The notes: generated from the sequence alone by a model not told the origin. Counted from the first letter of the stretch, positions 1 through 8,658 are shown. The stretch: DNA of 64,000 bases from an uncultured Bacteroidota bacterium (GCA_963734955.1 CAVTJO010000011.1:457698-521697), one strand, 5' to 3'. Program-made: numbers and translations.

Positions 1-1400
1 ACGGCAAATTGCTTCGCATGGGGCTCTTCGTGGCACCCCTCACACTTTGTTGGAGCGAGCTGATACTGCACGATGGTATTCTTGCCGGCGGGCTTGTGGC
101 ACCCTGCACACGCCACCGTTGTATGTTTGCCCACCAATGCAAAGGGCGTACGTGAGTGATCGAAGGATGTTCGTCTCCACTCCTCCGTTGCATGGCACTT
201 CGTGCAGCCAGCCTCTCCCATCAGCACCTTGAACTGCCCTCCGTGAGGGTCCTTATGGCAAGGTTCACACTTGAGTGTCGCGAAATGGAACACGGAACGA
301 TCGGCAGCTGTAGCGTTGTGGCATCGAGCGCATGGTACTGCCCTGTGTGCACCGCGAAGCGGAAAGCGGGTTGCCTCGTGGCGTACAAGCGTAAACGTGG
401 AGGGGCGATAGCCATCTTCAGTATGACACTTCGCGCAATCATTGTCGTACTTCGTCAGGAACTCTCCCAGATGATGGTCTGCGTGGCAATCGGTACACTT
501 GTCATGCGCCATTTTTAGTATCCGACCACTTGGGGATTTCACATCAGCCTTGTGGCATTGCTGGCATTTCACCTCCACATGCTTGCCGCGAAGTTTGAAG
601 TTCGTGAGATCATGATTGAAGCGAGCTTCCTGCACCTCATGCCATCCCGTCGAAACGTGGCATGACGCGCAGCTCTGAGAAGAGAACTTTGCAGGATGAT
701 GCGAAGAGTGGCACGGGGTGCAATCCGCGAAACTCCTTGTGCCAAGAATCGATGTCTTCGAGACATTGCCAGCGGAGGGCTGGTTATGGCATTTGTCACA
801 CGCGACATCCTTATGCTTTCCTATCAATGCAAATTTTGTCCGGGAGTGATCGAAATTGGACGCGGGTTTCCAGGCCGTGGTCGTATGGCAGGAATTGCAG
901 TCGGTGCCCAACGTACCCTTATGGTGATCCTCATGGCACGAAACACAGGCTTCGCTTAACCCCAGGATTGTTTTCACACCCTTCTTCGCTATCTCGGGAT
1001 CTTTGATGAATTTTGCAGTATGACAGTCATTGCACCCCTTCGTCGTATGTTTTCCTGTCAACACGAATCCGGTCTTTGAGTGGTCGAACCGCGAGCGATC
1101 GAACACAGTGATTTGTGCGTTTCGTCCCAGGTGCTCCTTATGACATGTCACACAGTTGTCCGCCGAAACTGCGAAGTGGTAGCCGTGTTTCAGGTCGAGC
1201 TCCTTTTTGATTTCCTTGTGACATGTCAGGCACTTTGTTCCGCTGATTTCCTTGCCCACCTCGTGGCAATCGGCGCAATGACTTATCCCTTCCAACTTTT
1301 GATGCGCGCGGGCCAGTTCGCCCGGTGAGAATTGCGCGTGCGCAATCTCCACCTGGCAGGCAAGTGCTGCCACAAACAGCACCAGTAAACGCATCTGCAT
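1..1400 (-). CDS. Multiheme c-type cytochrome (c7/c3-like polymer), 17 CxxCH motifs, N-terminal signal peptide; 3' end truncated by window edge
   Basis: Hand translation of the minus strand from the ATG at 1400 gives MQMRLLVLFVAALACQVEIAHA (signal peptide), then 17 CxxCH motifs (CADCH, CLTCH, CVTCH, CNDCH, ... CEGCH) in about 466 aa with no stop down to position 1. The repeated module 'FDHS(K/R)T.F.L.GKH....C..CH' resembles tandem cytochrome c7 domains. The gene is absent from the ORF track, probably because it runs off the window edge. Confidence 0.8.
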   Translation of the reverse strand, partial: MQMRLLVLFVAALACQVEIAHAQFSPGELARAHQKLEGISHCADCHEVGKEISGTKCLTCHKEIKKELDLKHGYHFAVSADNCVTCHKEHLGRNAQITVFDRSRFDHSKTGFVLTGKHTTKGCNDCHTAKFIKDPEIAKKGVKTILGLSEACVSCHEDHHKGTLGTDCNSCHTTTAWKPASNFDHSRTKFALIGKHKDVACDKCHNQPSAGNVSKTSILGTRSFADCTPCHSSHHPAKFSSQSCASCHVSTGWHEVQEARFNHDLTNFKLRGKHVEVKCQQCHKADVKSPSGRILKMAHDKCTDCHADHHLGEFLTKYDNDCAKCHTEDGYRPSTFTLVRHEATRFPLRGAHRAVPCARCHNATAADRSVFHFATLKCEPCHKDPHGGQFKVLMGEAGCTKCHATEEWRRTSFDHSRTPFALVGKHTTVACAGCHKPAGKNTIVQYQLAPTKCEGCHEEPHAKQFA

Positions 1401-1413
1401 AAAGACAATTACC

Positions 1414-2013
1414 TCACAGTGAAGGATTCTTCCCCGTGAGCAGCTTGAGATTCTCCCCCGCCTTCCTGGCTAGCTCATCATGAGGATGGGAAGAGATGAG
1501 CTTTCTCCAGTAGTACAGGGCCGAGTCGCTCATTCCCCTATTGCCGTAGATTGCTCCAACGTTATAGAGTGCGTGAGCATTCGATGCGTCCTGTTGCAAT
1601 ACCTTCACATTCTGTTGGAATGCTTCCTGCTCTTTTCCAGATTGATACAGGCAAAGGGAATAATCCACCCGCGCAGCAATATTCTTCGGATCGGCCTGCA
1701 ATCCTATTGCATAGTATTTGAGCGCTCCAGACGTATCATGCCCATCCTGCAACGTCCGTGCAAGCTCGAACGCCGACGTCGCATTTGACGGATGCTTTGC
1801 AACAACGTCCTTAAGATGGTTGATACGCTCCTCTACCTGCTTGCTGACATTGCTCTTTGATGGTGCCGGAGCCACAGGCGAGGTCGAAGCCACCTTTGCA
1901 GGTGTTGCCACCGGCGTCCACTGAAGTGCAACCGTGGTAAGGGCAATGCCCAGCACAAGTGCCACAGATAACGTGACCTTGGTATTCAGGCTGACGTTGT
2001 TCAGAAAATCCAT
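1414..2013 (-). CDS. Membrane-anchored TPR-repeat protein (CcmI/NrfG-like apocytochrome chaperone candidate)
   Basis: 199 aa. The N-terminus has one hydrophobic anchor (VTLSVALVLGIALTTVALQW) followed by TPR-like repeats (ALKYYAIGLQADPKN..., ALYNVGAIYGNRGMSDSALYYWRKL). It sits directly upstream of, and co-oriented with, the multiheme cytochrome. Confidence 0.55.
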   Translation of the reverse strand: MDFLNNVSLNTKVTLSVALVLGIALTTVALQWTPVATPAKVASTSPVAPAPSKSNVSKQVEERINHLKDVVAKHPSNATSAFELARTLQDGHDTSGALKYYAIGLQADPKNIAARVDYSLCLYQSGKEQEAFQQNVKVLQQDASNAHALYNVGAIYGNRGMSDSALYYWRKLISSHPHDELARKAGENLKLLTGKNPSL

Positions 2014-2861
2014 CGATACCCCAGCAGAACTGTAACGGCAATATGCGCAGCCAACGTAACAAACATAATGACGGTAAAGGGGATGTGAATTGCATGCCAG
2101 TAATAAAAGAGCTTGCCCGCCTGGTTCAACACAAGCGACTTTTGAATCAGCGATGCGAATGCCGTCGCTGTTGTCTGCAACTCCCTCGCAGCCTGATGAG
2201 AGCGCACGTTTGCAGCGATGAGCGCATGCACCTGCCTGCGAATGGCTCGACGAAGCGAAGCGAGCTTGAAGAATGTGCCGATGGCTTCCCCTATCGTTTT
2301 CGGCCTTTGCATCGACTCGAAACTTTTGAAGATTGTCTTGATGAGCCGGTCTCCGATCGGGCTGCTCGAAAGTTTCGCACTCAACTTGTCCATTTCGCTG
2401 GTAATCTGCCCTGCCGTGAGCTCGTTACCCTGAATATTCTTCGGGATCTGCGTATATAAAAAACGTCCGACTACCCCACTGGAGGCCACGGAGATCATCG
2501 TCCACAGACTGATCGCTGCTATGCCTCCCGCCTTGAATGTCGTGTGAAATACAACCAGCAAGGGCCCCAGAAGGCAAAGAAATATGTGAACCTCGAGCCA
2601 TCGCGACAGTTTGCCAAGATTCCAGAGCGCCTTGGCACGTTTCCTTGTGGAGTACATTGAAACGCCGACGATGATCATCGACGCTCCGACGATCCCCAAG
2701 CCGTGACTATAGTCTCCCGATGGCTTCATGGTTTCGTAGTCTCCACGAAACTGGCGAAGGTGAAGCGGGGTAACATAGTAGCCGAACCCGTGCAACGAGA
2801 CGGCAAGCACTGCCGTGAGGCTCGTGAATACAAGAAACACAATGAAAACCCTATGCGCCAT
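2001..2861 (-). CDS. Integral membrane protein with conserved His in transmembrane helices (possible b-type cytochrome / DUF4405-like)
   Basis: 286 aa with about 5 predicted TM helices, several carrying His pairs (HIFLCLLGPLLVVFH; YYWHAIHIPF; AAHIAVT). There are no CxxCH motifs. It overlaps the TPR gene by 13 nt, so they are likely co-transcribed. Confidence 0.4.
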   Translation of the reverse strand: MAHRVFIVFLVFTSLTAVLAVSLHGFGYYVTPLHLRQFRGDYETMKPSGDYSHGLGIVGASMIIVGVSMYSTRKRAKALWNLGKLSRWLEVHIFLCLLGPLLVVFHTTFKAGGIAAISLWTMISVASSGVVGRFLYTQIPKNIQGNELTAGQITSEMDKLSAKLSSSPIGDRLIKTIFKSFESMQRPKTIGEAIGTFFKLASLRRAIRRQVHALIAANVRSHQAARELQTTATAFASLIQKSLVLNQAGKLFYYWHAIHIPFTVIMFVTLAAHIAVTVLLGYRWIF

Positions 2862-3159
2862 TGCTCTCCAGAAAATATGACACCAAAGCTAACGAATTGC
2901 ATCAACTTGCACAATGCCGCCATCGCTAGTCCCCTCCATAACAGCAACCGGGTTTCCGGGACGAAATGCCGCGGGTCCTCCCGGCAAAAACATACTTTTA
3001 AATCCGAGTAGAGGCAATACCATATTTGTGGTACGCTGCATCTTTGTGAAAGTCGTGCACAGGTTGATTCGGCAGGAGGGGCGAAGATGAGTCACTTTTA
3101 CTTCCGCGGGCGAAAGAAATACCTCATCGGGAGTTCACTTGGACTTGCAGCACAGGATC

Positions 3160-5690
3160 TTATTTGACGACGACCATTTTCTTTGTGTCGACATACTTTC
3201 CGGCTCTCAACCGGTAGAAGTACAATCCGCTCGCCGTACCGCCAGCGTTCCATCGCACTGAATGCAGTCCCGATACCATCTCGTTGTTTATCAACGTCGC
3301 TACCTCCTCTCCAAGTATGTTGTATACACTTAACATGATGTGGCCGGCCCTGGCAACGGAAAACCGGATGGTTGTGGTGGGATTGAATGGATTGGGATAG
3401 TTCTGGCTCAACGAGTAATTGATTGGAGCGCGAGGGGGGTTGACCTCAGATGATTGTGAAGATATCCCAACTTTCATTCCTGCACCAAAGCTCGATACCC
3501 ATATTTCGGATGGCGTGAATGGATTGAAGAAGACTCGCTCGGGTTGACGGAATACGTATGAATCGACTAGATCAAACGATGGGCTCACGGTGTTGATATC
3601 TGCGCTTCGCCATAGACCATTTGTTTCGGTGGTAACATAGAGCTCGTTCATATTGAGGGGATTGAATGTGCACGAGGTAACACGGTCGAGGCTGTTAATG
3701 CGAGTCCAAAGAACCCCGCGGTTCGTTGTTCTGTACAATCCTCCGAGGCCATTCGGTGAGCCTCCCCACCCGCTGAAGACACCAACATACCAAGTGTTCT
3801 GGTTCGGATCATTCGCATCGACGACGATATCTTTCGTCCAGTACCGCATGCCGTTGTCACTTCGATCGATCCAGCTGGATCCATGATCGGTACTTACGAA
3901 TACACCGGAACTGGCCGTGAACGTCCCGCTTGAGTTCCGTCGTCCGGAAAAAGTGCAAACGACTGTGCCATCATTCAACACTATAATAGACGCTGGATGC
4001 CCTTCAGTTCTTGGAGGAACCGTGACGCGGTTCCAGGTCGAAAGAGAGTCATTTTGAATATTGTTCGAAACGAATATCCCACCTTGCGTCGAGTGAATGA
4101 CACTAGCGTACATCCTGTTCGCATCTGTCGGATCAACCGCAACCCAGAATACAGGATGACCGAACGAATGAAGAAGCCACCATGCCGCCCCACCATTTGT
4201 TGAATAGATGATCTTTCCCTCAGCGTCATTTGCATCAAGGATGTTATCCTGAAGCCGGGTGCTCTGATACATATCGTGGATATTGGAAGTTGCAGCATAC
4301 AGCTTTCCCGTGGACGGGTGTCTGACAATCCTGTACATCGTGTTGGCAGCATGACCGGTGTAGTTGAACGACCAACTGTTGCCACCATCCGTACTCCGCA
4401 CACCCTTGATGTCGGAGAAGCATGCGAACATGTTCTGCGTGTCGAGCCAGAACAACTGCCAGCACGTGGTGTTCTCCAATCCTATGCTGTGATATGCCTT
4501 CCTGGGTGGAGTATTCGAACCGGCCGGATTCTGATCCGCTGAAGCCACATACGCCTGCCGCCAACCCGTTCCGCCGTTGGTGGATACGATGAACAAATCC
4601 GAAATCCGAGAACACAATTCTGGATGGATCATCAGCTGAAACCGTGATTCCAAACGGACATTCAGCATATCCCCAACCGCGGTCGCCGCCGGTGCCACAC
4701 CAACCTGTTGCGATATTCTGGTTGTTGGAGACGTTGAACGTGTGCGTCCAGCTCGACTCCCGCATTCGTTGTCTTCATGATGTTCGGCACGCCGGATGTA
4801 TTGCTGCCGCCGAGATACACCGTGTTGATATCGTTGGACGCCATTGTCACAAGCATCAGGTAATCCGTCCCGACTGAAATCCCCGTCATCCGGGGAGTCC
4901 AATTGCCGGAACCATAGTCAAGCGAATAGACACCACGCAAGAAGTCCCAGTAGTCCGACGCGGGCATGCCGGCATAGATGCTGCTCGCCGTTCCGGTCAG
5001 ACAGAACAGGCGGGTTGTTGTGCCTTGCCGTGCACCCGCAAAGGAGAAGATCGCCTCGCCAGATGCAATTCCGGTTACCGTGCTTGTGGTGAATGAGCTC
5101 CCACCATTCGTTGAAATCAGAAGACCGTCATTCGTTCCAATAAAGATGTTGTTCCCATCGAAGAAGACACCTCCCACGACAATTCCCGCACCACTGTTGA
5201 GCGCATGATGAACTGCGGAAAAGGCCCTTCCACTGTCTGCCGAAAAGTAGAGATCACCGTAGTATGATATCAGAACCCGCGCCGGTAAGTTGTAATCGAC
5301 ATTGGTGCTGAATGTCTCCTCCGAAGGATCGGGATTACCGGGAAGCACATTCCAACTGGACCCGCCGTCTGTACTTCGGACCGGCAAGGCAAGATCATTC
5401 GCGTAGCTTATACAATAGAGAAGGTTGGGGCTGACAGTGAATTGTACCCTGGAGTTGTGCCCGCCTTGAATCGACTGAAAAGGTACGGTTGAGAACGACA
5501 GGCCGAAATCGGTTGTGTGGAACAGCTCGCTCATATCGCAGCTGACATAGAACTCATCGGGACGTGCCGGATTGATGCTTGGAGCAAAGAGCGCTCCACC
5601 GCCGCCAACACCGCGGGATGACCATTGCGTCGGTTGAGAGAAGGCTGCACACACCGCGGTAAGAGCTGTAAACAGAATTGCCCACCTCAT
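3160..5690 (-). CDS. T9SS-secreted BNR/Asp-box repeat (sialidase-like) protein, interrupted by two apparent 1-nt frameshifts
   Basis: ORF 4662..5690 has a signal peptide (MRWAILFTALTAVCAAFSQ) and BNR motifs (STDGGSSW, STNGGSSF). ORF 3160..4902 has BNR motifs (STNGGTGW, STDGGNSW, STNGGAAW, STDHGSSW) and the T9SS C-terminal domain (NYPNPFNPTTTIRFSV...KMVVVK). The two ORFs overlap over 4662..4902 in different frames. A third frame (ORF 4244..4765) carries the bridging sequence: 'TTNAGV|SWTHTF' restores a BNR motif if one G near 4755 is removed. Confidence 0.6.
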
Positions 5691-5706: not shown

Positions 5707-8658
5707 CTATTTTAGCAAAAGAAGTTTTCGCGTTTCGGTATACTCTCCGGCCTTTAATCTGTAGAAGTATACACCGCTCGCCAAACCTCCGGCATTCCAC
5801 TGTGCGATGTATGTTCCCGCGACCTTCTCTTCATTTACCAGCGTTGCCACTTCCTGGCCGAGAGCATTGAAGACCTTAAGCTCAACGTGACCGTTCCTCG
5901 GAAGTGCAAACCGGATCATCGTACTCGGGTTGAACGGGTTGGGATAGTTCTGAGAAAGCGAGAAGGCTTCGGGGATCTCTCCGCCTTCATCCCGTACCGA
6001 GGTTTCAATCTGGCGATACTTGATGGTCTTAAACACGCTCGATGCACCATTTTGCAGCACTGCACCAACATAGACATCTCCCTGGTTGGAGATAGCGATT
6101 GGATACTGATACCAGGAGTTGGCACCGTTGTCCTCAAAACCGGTGGACCATCTCTGTACTCCATCCGGACTGAATGCCCGAGTCTGATATTCCACAATAG
6201 ACGGCGTGATATGAATGCCGGCGATATAGGCGTTCCCGGAATTATCCAGCGCCATGTACGATCCGAGGCAATCCGTGATGATGAGATTCCAAAGAATCGC
6301 TCCACCATTGCTGATCCTGGCAAGCCCACCGGATGAGTTTCGGACAAGGACATTCTCCGAGGGATCGAGGGCGATTGAGTTGCCTGCAAGCGGAACGGAC
6401 CAGACACTCGTTCCGGCAGGATTGAGCTTTCTCGTTGATCCTGTATCGGACGTTATATACACGTTGCAGGCATGGTCAACCGAAAGTGCGGATGCGCCGC
6501 CGGGATATACCCATCGTAAATTTCCATCCTCGTCGTACTTCACAACCCTGCGACCTCCGGCAACGATAACGTTGTTCGAATCATCCACTGCAAGCGCGGT
6601 CGTACCTTCTCCCTGGGTTGAATCAAATGTGGCCATCCACAATTGGTCCCCTGTGGGGCCGTACTTAATTGTTACGTACTGCAACAGCCCGGGAAAAAGC
6701 TGTTGATAGCCGGTGACCAAGACGTTTTCACTCTGGTCAAATTCCATGTCAATACCATAGACGAGAGCACCATGTCTGCTTCCATAGGTTGCGGCCCAGA
6801 CTTGCTGGCCAAGAGGGTCGTACTTCACCATCGTAAACAGAGGAGCGTTGCCATCCCAAGCCACCGAGTCTCCGTTTGCAAGGACATAGAGGTTCCCTGA
6901 ACGGTCGATTCTCAGGGCGCAGGGAACATTGAATGACTGCGAGAAACCACTGTAGCGGGCAAGCCATTCAATGGTTCCTTCTGGGTTGTACTTGATGGTC
7001 AAGATATCGCTGGCCCAAGGTGCGGTGATGCTTGTGCCTGTGACGTAGACGTTGTTTGAATCGTCCACCACCATTGCATACACCTGATCCCATGAACGAG
7101 TGCATTCCCTCGTGTGGATCCAGTTTCGGACTCCGTTCGATGCATACTTCAGCATGAGCATATCGGTCGCCTGCTCTCCACCTCTTCCTCCGACGATGTA
7201 GAGATTACCCGTAGGATCGCACACGATTTTGTTTGCGGCAAGACCGTTATAGTAAGGGGTTTCGTAACGAGTGTCATACGATGCCCTCCACTCCTCGTCA
7301 CCGGAGGCGGAGAACAATGCCGTGACGATTGCATAGTATTTTTCGTATCCATAAGATGGTGCTGCCGCCCAGGTAACATATGGCGAGCCGGTCGGGTCCA
7401 GGGCGACATCGACAGGCACCATACGGTCAGTGTCATTGGTAACCGATGTCCATTGGAGCTGACCGCCTGGACCATACTTGCATAGGGACAGAGAATCGGC
7501 TCCATAGGACCACCAGTATCCGCCAAACAATCCGACCACATAGATATTCCCTGCATGATCGGTCGCTGTGCGCATACCAACAGTACCTTGAGTGTGAGGC
7601 CCAGAGTCAAAAGTTGACCATTGCAAAATCCCGGCCCAGTTGTACTTCATCGTCAGAGATCTGAAGTTGTTGTTCCACCAATAATTGTGCGCGCTCTGAA
7701 CATATCCCGTGATCACGACATTGTCTGAATCATCAAGTGAGAAATCAGACGGAATGGCTGAAAGAGTATCATCTGGCGTATACGTGACTGTCCATTGCCG
7801 CCCCCCCGAGGAGGAATACTTCAGAATAACAGTCGAATAGAGCGAGAAACTGGCGCCTATTGAATCGCAACTCTTTCCAACGACGTACACATCTCCACCG
7901 TTGCTGCACGCGATCCCGATTGGCTGATCATTAAACTGCGCTGCACCCGCGTATCTATCCACCCACTGCTCCACACCATTATTGTCATACTTCACGGTGG
8001 CAAAGTCATAGTTGTTACCCAACCCCATCATCCGGGCGCTTTCACCGGTAACATACACGTTACCATTCCGATCAATCGCAATCGCAATGGGAACATCCCC
8101 GGCATTCCCCGTCCCGTTGTATCGCGCAACCCATTGTTCCTGCCCCGCGCCATTGTACTTGACGGTGGCATAGTCAAACCCGTATTCACCACTGCTCACT
8201 CCGGTCACGTACACATTCCCGGCATCGTCCACAACAATTGCGTTCGCCGCGTCGAAGTCGTGTGCAGGTCCGTCATATGCCGCAGACCATATCTCGACAC
8301 CTGCAGAATTGTATTTTATTGTGAGATAGTCATAGGAGCTCATCGGACTCTCGGCCTTGCCAGCAACATAAATATTCCCCTGAGGATCGACAGCGACCGC
8401 AGTTGCTTCGGCATGTCCCTTCAAAGCAGATGAAGAGTAATATTTCACCCATTCCGCCTGCGCGCTATCGAGGACGGAATACTGGCTTCCTGGAAGCTGT
8501 ATTCGGCTCGACGAGGTGGAGAATGACCTATCAGCTGGCAAACTTTTGGACTGGCGCTTCAAACTTGTTTGCCCAAACGAAGCACAAACAGCGACCGAGA
8601 GAAAGACGCCGGTCAGGAAAGAGCAAACAGAAACGTCCACAAAGCTCTTGCAGTTCAT
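5707..8658 (-). CDS. T9SS-secreted SBBP beta-propeller repeat protein
   Basis: 983 aa with a signal peptide and many 'GN(V/I)YV(T/A)G' repeats (PQGNIYVAG, AGNVYVTG, NGNVYVTG, ...). It ends in the Por C-terminal sorting domain (NYPNPFNPSTMIRFALP...LLLLK). Confidence 0.75.
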   Translation of the reverse strand: MNCKSFVDVSVCSFLTGVFLSVAVCASFGQTSLKRQSKSLPADRSFSTSSSRIQLPGSQYSVLDSAQAEWVKYYSSSALKGHAEATAVAVDPQGNIYVAGKAESPMSSYDYLTIKYNSAGVEIWSAAYDGPAHDFDAANAIVVDDAGNVYVTGVSSGEYGFDYATVKYNGAGQEQWVARYNGTGNAGDVPIAIAIDRNGNVYVTGESARMMGLGNNYDFATVKYDNNGVEQWVDRYAGAAQFNDQPIGIACSNGGDVYVVGKSCDSIGASFSLYSTVILKYSSSGGRQWTVTYTPDDTLSAIPSDFSLDDSDNVVITGYVQSAHNYWWNNNFRSLTMKYNWAGILQWSTFDSGPHTQGTVGMRTATDHAGNIYVVGLFGGYWWSYGADSLSLCKYGPGGQLQWTSVTNDTDRMVPVDVALDPTGSPYVTWAAAPSYGYEKYYAIVTALFSASGDEEWRASYDTRYETPYYNGLAANKIVCDPTGNLYIVGGRGGEQATDMLMLKYASNGVRNWIHTRECTRSWDQVYAMVVDDSNNVYVTGTSITAPWASDILTIKYNPEGTIEWLARYSGFSQSFNVPCALRIDRSGNLYVLANGDSVAWDGNAPLFTMVKYDPLGQQVWAATYGSRHGALVYGIDMEFDQSENVLVTGYQQLFPGLLQYVTIKYGPTGDQLWMATFDSTQGEGTTALAVDDSNNVIVAGGRRVVKYDEDGNLRWVYPGGASALSVDHACNVYITSDTGSTRKLNPAGTSVWSVPLAGNSIALDPSENVLVRNSSGGLARISNGGAILWNLIITDCLGSYMALDNSGNAYIAGIHITPSIVEYQTRAFSPDGVQRWSTGFEDNGANSWYQYPIAISNQGDVYVGAVLQNGASSVFKTIKYRQIETSVRDEGGEIPEAFSLSQNYPNPFNPSTMIRFALPRNGHVELKVFNALGQEVATLVNEEKVAGTYIAQWNAGGLASGVYFYRLKAGEYTETRKLLLLK

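Follow-up and report, generated by a model that had tools for sequence, protein, structure and literature searches.

The described system that comes closest to the locus studied here is PCC3, which He, Barco, Emerson & Roden 2017 (PMC5566968) described in iron-oxidizing and other Proteobacteria (Alpha-, Beta- and Gamma-). It consists of a porin, a conserved hypothetical inner-membrane protein (IMP) and two cytochromes, one extracellular (median 34 hemes, maximum 63) and one periplasmic (median 21; PMC5566968). This IMP comprises ~300 amino acids (aa) in five helices, carries SGxxG in helix 4 and W-x3-H-x13-H in helices 3 and 5, and was proposed to bind two b hemes (PMC5566968). In Gallionellaceae, the periplasmic cytochrome of PCC3 has 21, 24 or 27 hemes (PMC10734462). 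Here, we analyzed a stretch of 64,000 nucleotides (nt) from an uncultured Bacteroidota bacterium (GCA_963734955.1 CAVTJO010000011.1:457698-521697), referred to as the window, whose host is an uncultured Ignavibacteria-like member of the FCB group. Its first 2,861 nt hold genes for an IMP, a tetratricopeptide repeat (TPR) protein and a multiheme cytochrome. We consider it probable that they are the promoter-proximal genes of a conserved PCC3-type operon with five to six genes, encoding a trans-envelope electron conduit. This reading builds on the match to the IMP signature, on the heme counts (20 in the periplasmic and 13–67 in the larger cytochrome, compared with PCC3 medians of 21 and 34 and a maximum of 63) and on synteny.

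The original prediction, made from the sequence of the window, had placed a five-helix membrane protein, a membrane-anchored TPR protein and a secreted cytochrome in this order on the minus strand, and all three are present. As it had also explained, the cytochrome is absent from the open reading frame (ORF) track because ORFs that run off the window go unlisted. The features are given below by window position.

2001..2861, minus strand: gene of the IMP (286 aa, five transmembrane helices), a candidate di-heme cytochrome b; it opens the operon.
2544..2600, minus strand: helix-3 motif W88-x3-H92-x13-H106 (WLEVHIFLCLLGPLLVVFH), proposed axial ligands of an inner and an outer heme b.
2466..2480, minus strand: helix-4 motif S128-G129-x2-G132 (SGVVG), a hallmark of PCC3 and PCC4 IMPs.
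2043..2099, minus strand: helix-5 motif W255-x3-H259-x13-H273 (WHAIHIPFTVIMFVTLAAH), from translation and conservation.
1414..2013, minus strand: gene of a membrane-anchored TPR protein, 199 aa, with an N-terminal transmembrane helix, a Pro/Ser-rich linker and about three TPRs.
1400 to base 1, minus strand, cut by the window edge: reading frame of a secreted cytochrome, 466 aa, 17 CxxCH.
1335..1400, minus strand: predicted signal peptide MQMRLLVLFVAALACQVEIAHA, followed by QFSPGEL..., from translation and a junction conserved in homologues.
1095..1334, minus strand: N-terminal three-heme module of the cytochrome (SPGELARAH...CADCH...CLTCH...CVTCH), candidate entry module facing the IMP.
3..1094, minus strand: c7-like three-heme repeats 1–4 and part of repeat 5, with 14 of the 17 CxxCH.
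2862..3159, no strand assigned: presumed promoter region of the operon, a 298-nt intergenic stretch upstream of the IMP gene, assigned by position alone.

The window IMP carries the whole PCC3 signature: ~300 aa (286), five helices, both W-x3-H-x13-H motifs and SGxxG. Hydropathy places the five hydrophobic segments at residues 1-28, 54-72, 85-106, 113-132 and 256-283, and an AlphaFold2 model built from 89 diverse sequences (pLDDT 94.8) confirmed the helices. In the conservation set of 89 diverse relatives, which share 26–48% identity with the window protein, H106, S128, G132, W255, H259 and H273 are invariant, and W88, H92, G129 and H256 are at least 90% conserved. The histidines that the original prediction had seen paired in transmembrane helices are thus H92/H106 in helix 3 and H259/H273 in helix 5, and all four proved invariant or nearly so. 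Two loops are basic (residues 71–88 with 6 K/R and no acidic residues, and 137–250 with 17 K/R), from which we placed the N-terminus and a 110-aa helical domain, inserted before the last helix, in the cytoplasm. In the predicted topology, H92 and H259 lie toward the cytoplasmic side and H106 and H273 toward the periplasmic side, with the pairs at matching depth. In ferric-reductase-type and related cytochromes, this layout stacks two b hemes.

The family to which this protein belongs is large and of constant length, with 554 word-index matches and 3,193 representative clusters at E ≤ 1e-3. The window IMP scores 15.6 bits (E 0.023) against DUF4405 (PF14358), whose gathering threshold is 26.7, and is not a member; 30 of the 89 relatives match DUF4405 at E ≤ 0.01 (best 6e-6). 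These weak scores indicate a distant relationship and not membership. When the relatives were scanned singly, 15 also matched Ferric_reduct and six matched Ni_hydr_CYTB (prokaryotic cytochrome b561). A search of the PDB gave no meaningful sequence or profile match, and Foldseek gave no significant match. One DUF4405 protein has been purified and binds heme b experimentally (PMC11334425). Taken together, the conservation of both W-x3-H-x13-H motifs and of SGxxG, the relatives' matches to DUF4405, Ferric_reduct and Ni_hydr_CYTB, and the matching depths of the histidines point to the IMP being very probably a di-heme cytochrome b, with two b hemes stacked across the membrane. The original prediction had suggested a quinol-oxidizing b-type partner; the b-type half of this suggestion is very probable from the conserved histidines, whereas the quinol half found no support, and a constant flavoprotein described below points elsewhere.

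The second line of evidence is the cytochrome. The window fragment contains 17 CxxCH, 44 His and 35 Cys in 466 aa, or one heme site per 27 aa, which reproduces the counts of the original prediction. Its frame has no stops, and a full-length homologue (P0001; 94% identical, 540 aa, 20 CxxCH) supports the call and puts the window gene ~74 codons short of its stop. With 20 hemes in 540 aa (27 aa per heme) and a repeat-built sequence, this ortholog corresponds to the periplasmic cytochrome of PCC3. In total, 5,906 database proteins match the window cytochrome. The only exact match to the IMP lay on a 3.7-kb contig, which likewise breaks off inside the cytochrome. At full length, a distinct N-terminal three-heme module is followed by five three-heme repeats and a terminal two-heme unit. 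The repeat motif written as 'FDHS.T.F.L.GKH....C..CH' in the original prediction is real, and the repeat unit reads F-D/N-H-x2-T-x-F-x-L-x-G-x-H-x4-CxxCH ... CxxCH-x-D-x-H ... CxxCH. Behind the signal peptide, the junction A-Q-(F/I)-S-P-G is conserved and the Cys of the signal peptide is not, which suggests cleavage by signal peptidase I and a soluble periplasmic cytochrome. The fragment holds 27 His outside the motifs and only four Met, so all-His ligation of the 17 hemes is possible.

The c7-like character of the modules stands up in Pfam, where the fragment scores 58 bits against Cytochrome_C7 (PF14522; gathering threshold 24.8) over six stretches and also exceeds the thresholds of Cytochrom_CIII and Cytochrom_c3_2. 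The closer likeness to the Geobacter 'nanowire' proteins does not: NCBIfam TIGR04257 (cut-off 40 bits) is not among the matches at E ≤ 0.1. The fragment also scores far under the NCBIfam cut-offs of the MtrA/DmsE, HmcA and GSU2203 families, and a sequence and profile search of the PDB returned no relative. Heme counts of the periplasmic cytochrome in the related loci L001–L043 fall in classes three apart (17, 20 and 23). Together with the 21, 24 and 27 hemes of Gallionellaceae PCC3, these classes suggest that length changes by gain or loss of whole three-heme modules.

The third line of evidence is synteny. We compared 43 loci from ~40 metagenome-assembled genomes (MAGs), collected from contigs with close homologues and from a one-genome-per-species scan with the two IMP motifs. 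All are from uncultured organisms, labeled Bacteroidota, Ignavibacteria/Ignavibacteriales, Chlorobi, Zixibacteria (one) and Eisenbacteria (four). Gene content was taken from an ORF-and-BLAST survey, in which 29 loci were long enough to be informative on the barrel and flavoprotein genes described next. The core order is IMP, a cytochrome with 17, 20 or 23 hemes, a cytochrome with 13–67 hemes, a putative barrel of ~530 aa and an iron-sulfur (Fe-S) flavoprotein of ~438 aa. All orthologous loci of sufficient length contain the second, larger multiheme cytochrome, and its 13–67 CxxCH, found outside the window, agree with the larger cytochrome of PCC3; its extracellular site is predicted. Within the closest locus (L001; IMP 95%, TPR 96% and cytochrome 93% identical to the window by BLAST), the large multiheme gene overlaps the end of the 20-heme gene. 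From this continuation, genes for the large cytochrome, the barrel and the flavoprotein are expected beyond base 1 of the window. The original prediction of a compact electron-conduit module thus holds for the nature of the parts and fails for its extent, as the operon goes on with three more conserved genes. It also passed over PCC3, the nearest described system, and the flavoprotein.

The putative outer-membrane barrel is encoded next to the large cytochrome in 26 of the 29 informative loci. It has a signal peptide, and 22 of 24 orthologs end in ...ELSxRF, typical of outer-membrane barrels; Pfam and NCBIfam gave no match. The large cytochrome reaches 16.5 bits against TIGR04257 (cut-off 40), and neither a lipobox nor a tail of the type IX secretion system (T9SS) was found in the two large-cytochrome sequences examined. 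At the position of the large cytochrome, L027 (12404-17458) has one ORF of 1,684 aa with 67 CxxCH, slightly over the PCC3 extreme of 63 (2017).

Within the window, the ATG of the TPR gene lies inside the last IMP codons (13-nt overlap), and the cytochrome starts (1400) 13 nt past the TPR stop, with its frame open up to the window edge. The three genes are probably co-transcribed as parts of an electron conduit. A scan of bases 1-3300 for sigma-70-type promoters and terminators gave nothing above chance, with a tool that does not cover the promoters of this group. Across the 64-kb window, we found no further multiheme ORFs and no Trp-rich heme-handling motifs of cytochrome maturation proteins, so that the check for maturation genes proposed with the original prediction came back empty over this stretch.

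The most constant partner of the IMP is the ~438-aa flavoprotein, present in 29 of 29 informative loci. This membrane-anchored protein starts with an N-terminal helix, carries two ferredoxin-type Fe-S motifs and has an FAD/NAD(P) domain like that of thioredoxin reductase/YpdA; its best NCBIfam match is the YpdA/thioredoxin-reductase group, below cut-off. Its gene is usually the last of the operon, sits directly upstream of the one for the IMP in Eisenbacteria, and follows the IMP gene directly in three distant lineages (representative search) and in Emticicia oligotrophica. The helix is followed by a basic stretch, there is no twin-arginine signal, two Rossmann-type domains are present, and the flavin domain contains no CxxC. 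These properties point to a cytoplasmic electron-transfer enzyme and not to a disulfide reductase. In all 25 sequences aligned (L003 16078-17397 and 24 orthologs, including Emticicia and Eisenbacteria), the second ferredoxin motif is C-x2-H-x2-C-x3-C-P; the His standing in for the usual second Cys suggests that the Fe-S relay has a His-ligated or otherwise unusual cluster at one end. The first ferredoxin motif has Ser for its second Cys in Emticicia and L047. In one apparent fusion of IMP and flavoprotein (P0281), both the IMP and the flavin domain are incomplete; as a truncated or chimeric gene call is the likelier origin, we did not use it as evidence.

A whole operon is also present in a cultured Cytophagales strain, Emticicia oligotrophica DSM 17448, at record positions 81299-89995 of its 100-kb plasmid pEMTOL02 (NC_018749.1). 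The surrounding region (L050) contains the following.

Record 78197-90781, pEMTOL02: a 1,028-aa ccsA, the IMP (281 aa), the flavoprotein (440 aa), a 23-heme cytochrome and a 40-heme cytochrome.
After the 40-heme cytochrome: a 538-aa hypothetical protein, then a GW-domain protein; annotations are generic throughout this region.

More distant IMP-like genes, with ~26% identity and both His-x13-His pairs kept, occur on plasmids of Methylophaga pinxianii (L051), Acetobacter aceti (L052) and Sphingobium sp. SYK-6 (pSLPG; L053). In these three modules, a ferredoxin-NADP-reductase-like flavoprotein with FAD_binding_6, NAD_binding_1 and 2Fe-2S domains is followed by the IMP-like protein and a membrane-anchored heptaheme cytochrome, often then by DUF1622; the modules are embedded in islands of copper or heavy-metal resistance genes. 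The heptaheme cytochromes encoded behind the IMP-like genes align collinearly, from their start, with the N-terminal module of the 20-heme cytochrome (E 2e-16). The first half of the 20-heme cytochrome is matched by 30 plasmid records (pEMTOL02 and 29 others), mostly sphingomonad conjugative plasmids. Among the 29 others, which are proteobacterial and Bacteroidota records, Sphingobium SYK-6 alone was inspected, and it carries the module. The linkage of a flavoprotein across loci and plasmids indicates a recurring triad, in which a cytoplasmic NAD(P)-flavoprotein and a two-heme membrane protein are joined by a c-type cytochrome of the periplasm. Our guess is that the plasmid triad might serve NAD(P)H-driven periplasmic metal reduction.

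From these partners, we infer the following path. The flavoprotein would oxidize NAD(P)H and pass the electrons through FAD and then its Fe-S clusters to the inner and on to the outer heme b of the IMP. The outer heme b would reduce the N-terminal module of the soluble periplasmic 20-heme 'wire', which in turn would hand electrons to the large cytochrome, seated in the barrel or threaded through it, and so to a final acceptor outside the cell, for example Fe(III) minerals or humic substances. The membrane-tethered TPR accessory would face the periplasm. The two cytochromes together would hold at least 33 c-type hemes (sums of 17+13 to 23+67 across loci). Such a path would bypass the quinone pool and, by drawing off electrons, regenerate NAD(P)+; it would be an electron sink and not a coupling site, given the established bioenergetic rule that outward electron flow follows the membrane potential. 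It is the invariable flavoprotein partner that suggests this NAD(P)H-fed, quinone-independent export. A bolder proposal, which we regard as possible rather than probable, is that IMP and Fe-S flavoprotein together form a split NAD(P)H dehydrogenase resembling NADPH oxidase (NOX), feeding a two-membrane heme c wire without quinones, and that the plasmid modules share this arrangement in miniature.

Several points weigh against the PCC3-type reading or against the path that we derive from it. The window IMP has no Pfam or NCBIfam assignment and stays under every Pfam threshold, and only three operon genes are visible in the window, the remainder coming from orthologous loci. Likeness to PCC3, whose founding proteins include Slit_0867-0870, was judged by the published description. 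The di-heme b proteins FdnI and CybB exchange electrons with quinones, and a quinone site in the IMP is possible from its sequence. He et al. considered the PCC3 IMP perhaps quinone-reactive as well (PMC5566968). Later descriptions of PCC3 list four genes and no flavoprotein, so that NAD(P)H input may not be general, and later papers grade PCC3 as functionally unverified. In iron oxidizers, finally, the same architecture is thought to run inward.

The quinone question bears on the first alternative, a self-contained three-gene module in which the IMP oxidizes quinol, the TPR protein is a dedicated CcmI/NrfG-like chaperone and the cytochrome is a periplasmic carrier. Basic residues precede the N-terminal hydrophobic helix of the TPR protein, whose TPR domain probably faces the periplasm. 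The protein resembles CcmI/NrfG in having a membrane anchor, a short and probably periplasmic TPR domain, a gene beside a cytochrome c gene and a weak match to TPR_CcmH_CycH (PF23914), to which all ten orthologs match at E ≤ 1e-3 (best 2e-10). It differs in that the window protein scores 30 bits against a cut-off of 42, that generic TPR families score equally, and that a profile of the ten orthologs ranks designed consensus TPR proteins first when compared with the PDB; a chaperone function as originally predicted is hence not borne out. The gene occurs in only 10 of the 43 loci, mostly those with an IMP among the closest to that of the window, and in loci without it the IMP gene mostly abuts the cytochrome gene directly. 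Absence from 33 of 43 homologous loci undermines, on the original prediction's own terms, the idea of a dedicated cytochrome partner; the TPR gene is a clade-specific accessory and not a core partner. A rearranged locus (L033 5554-13842: IMP, TPR, large cytochrome, barrel, 20-heme cytochrome, flavoprotein) keeps the TPR gene with an IMP only 51% identical to that of the window, so the gene is either older than the closest clade or was transferred.

For the three-gene module speak also the translational coupling of the three genes and the quinone reactivity of the structural neighbors FdnI and CybB, which is general knowledge. The suggestion of a quinone-active IMP by He et al. (PMC5566968) adds to this, and the ccsA directly upstream of the Emticicia operon shows that linkage to maturation functions occurs. 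Nevertheless, the operon has three further conserved genes, we found no quinone-site feature, and a cytoplasmic NAD(P)-type flavoprotein always accompanies the IMP, a constancy that quinol input leaves unexplained. In view of these findings, we consider the three-gene module unlikely.

To much the same degree, we doubt that the conduit runs in reverse and brings electrons from extracellular donors (Fe(II), minerals or cathodes) to the inner membrane, as has been proposed for PCC3 in Gallionellaceae. PCC3 was defined in iron oxidizers and proposed for iron oxidation (PMC5566968), and conduits of the Mtr/Mto multiheme type are considered reversible. However, the PCC3 clusters of S. lithotrophicus ES-1 were down-regulated on Fe(II), and Ignavibacteria relatives include iron, arsenate and nitrate reducers, some of them enriched on anodes. 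Electron flow from Fe(II) to NAD(P)+ would moreover be uphill, and inward electrons would oppose the membrane potential, as follows from general bioenergetics. Inward flow is thus possible for the outer parts of the conduit, while an inward path ending in NAD(P)+ is energetically unlikely.

A system that ends in the periplasm or outer membrane, as an electron store ('capacitor') or a reductase of soluble substrates, with a 530-aa protein that is no cytochrome-threading porin, seems to us very unlikely. The missing Pfam and NCBIfam matches of that protein and the missing lipobox and T9SS tail in the two large cytochromes would fit such a system, and a capacitor role has been discussed for PCC3. 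Yet the barrel gene stands beside the large-cytochrome gene in 26 of 29 loci, its product carries a signal peptide and a C-terminal Phe signal, and a barrel combined with a large cytochrome is the hallmark of known porin-cytochrome conduits. Slightly less likely still is a maturation device in which IMP and flavoprotein keep heme or CxxCH thiols reduced in the periplasm for the giant cytochromes: its case is the flavoprotein's below-cut-off match to the YpdA/thioredoxin-reductase group, the ccsA beside the Emticicia operon, ccm genes near the Methylophaga module and a weakly CcmH/CycH-like TPR inserted in this clade, but the flavin domain has no redox-active CxxC disulfide and electrons would exit through Fe-S clusters, a two-heme relay into a periplasmic heme chain is the simpler reading, and in the proteobacterial modules, which lie in metal-resistance islands, a single small cytochrome accompanies the IMP-like protein.

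Upstream of the operon, the window carries two large genes on the minus strand, at 5707-8658 (983 aa) and 3160-5690, whose products end in a C-terminal domain of the NYPNPFNP... type; the L001 ortholog of the first neighbor contains Pfam Por_Secre_tail, in line with the T9SS context noted in the original prediction. Genes upstream of the operon vary among the related loci inspected. The gene at 3160-5690 (BNR/sortilin-like) is broken over three frames, whereas its L001 ortholog (250-2778) is intact with 842 aa. ORF 4662-5690 corresponds to residues 1-311 and ORF 3160-4902 to residues 343-842, and ORF 4244-4765 appears, from its translation, to be the middle part. The two frameshifts mark either a pseudogene or indel errors of the assembly. 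The cytochrome frame has no break of this kind. In two otherwise different loci (L003 6501-8801 and a 474-kb JGI contig), a polyphosphate kinase gene on the opposite strand adjoins the operon; the operon of the window has no such neighbor.

Outside Geobacter and Shewanella, how electrons exit the inner membrane is the part of extracellular electron transfer (EET) that is understood least, and the constant flavoprotein provides a testable hypothesis of quinone-independent, NOX-like input. A culturable host with a complete operon is at hand in Emticicia oligotrophica DSM 17448 (pEMTOL02). The comparison extends the architecture, in which a single protein can have as many as 67 heme sites, to Ignavibacteria-like organisms, Zixibacteria and Eisenbacteria. 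As the source MAGs come from groundwater, soils and peat, these groups may help to reduce iron minerals and humic substances. If the NOX-like reading is true, it would represent a previously unrecognized way of feeding EET; if it is wrong, ~3,200 clusters of 'hypothetical' membrane proteins can still be re-annotated as probable di-heme cytochromes b.

In the literature that we searched, a PCC3-like type is unreported for this lineage, and the additions to PCC3 are the constant flavoprotein and the clade-specific TPR gene. The supplementary files examined for PMC5566968 list no Ignavibacteria or Emticicia, and their only Bacteroidetes entry is in a homolog table of ~446-449-aa proteins and not in the PCC3 host tables. 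No paper that we found pairs PCC3 with Ignavibacteria, and none using the PCC3 name lists an FCB member. The operon is likewise not described among the EET clusters of peat (bioRxiv 2026.05.27.727921) or in a survey of outer-membrane cytochromes (PMC11475568). Like PCC3, the operon has a periplasmic cytochrome that varies in threes, a larger cytochrome (10-63 hemes in PCC3 and 13-67 here) and, putatively, a barrel gene; both systems have repeat-built cytochromes with very few residues per heme, and they share the predicted function. Unlike PCC3, it has a constant Fe-S flavoprotein, a TPR gene in one sub-clade and a different gene order.

The Geobacter Pcc (OmbB-OmaB-OmcB) and Shewanella MtrCAB conduits follow the same plan: the gene for an outer-membrane barrel lies together with those for a periplasmic multiheme and an outer cytochrome. 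Ignavibacterium album has a Pcc cluster of its own (IALB_1837-1840; PMC4245776), and porin-cytochrome clusters occur in Ignavibacteria MAGs as well; neither I. album nor M. roseus was among the hits of our IMP-motif genome scan, which is no proof of absence. In contrast to the operon described here, these conduits contain far fewer hemes (8+12 and 10+10, with 14 in IALB_1838), are fed by quinol dehydrogenases encoded elsewhere (ImcH, CbcL and CymA) and lack IMP and flavoprotein genes in their clusters. The 20 and 13-67 hemes found here differ from the periplasmic octaheme and outer-membrane dodecaheme cytochromes of Geobacter Pcc. With the polymeric c7 cytochromes of Geobacter (GSU1996/GSU0592 type), the window cytochrome shares the chain of c7-related three-heme modules; it differs from them by the missing TIGR04257 match, by its distinct N-terminal entry module and by its place in a porin-cytochrome operon.

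The di-heme b proteins of the DUF4405, MsrQ, PepSY-like and ferric-reductase kind (PMC11334425) resemble the IMP in having four His on two transmembrane helices and two proposed b hemes. The window IMP has five helices instead of six, carries the 110-aa insertion and is partnered with multiheme c-type cytochromes, not with flavinylated proteins or MsrP. The ferric-reductase domain (PF01794; NOX/FRE/MsrQ) has six helices, with His-x13-His in helix 3 and His-x12/13-His in helix 5. In NADPH oxidases and ferric reductases, and in the E. coli MsrQ-Fre pair, a cytoplasmic flavin oxidizes NAD(P)H and electrons cross the membrane over two b hemes held by His-x13-His helices. The same parallel in the His motifs was noted by He et al. 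(PMC5566968). Gene linkage suggests that electrons may pass from flavoprotein to IMP in a comparable two-component, NOX-like system, which would differ from NOX and MsrQ-Fre by its separate, thioredoxin-reductase-like Fe-S flavoprotein and by its acceptor, a heme c wire in place of O2, an Fe(III) chelate or MsrP.

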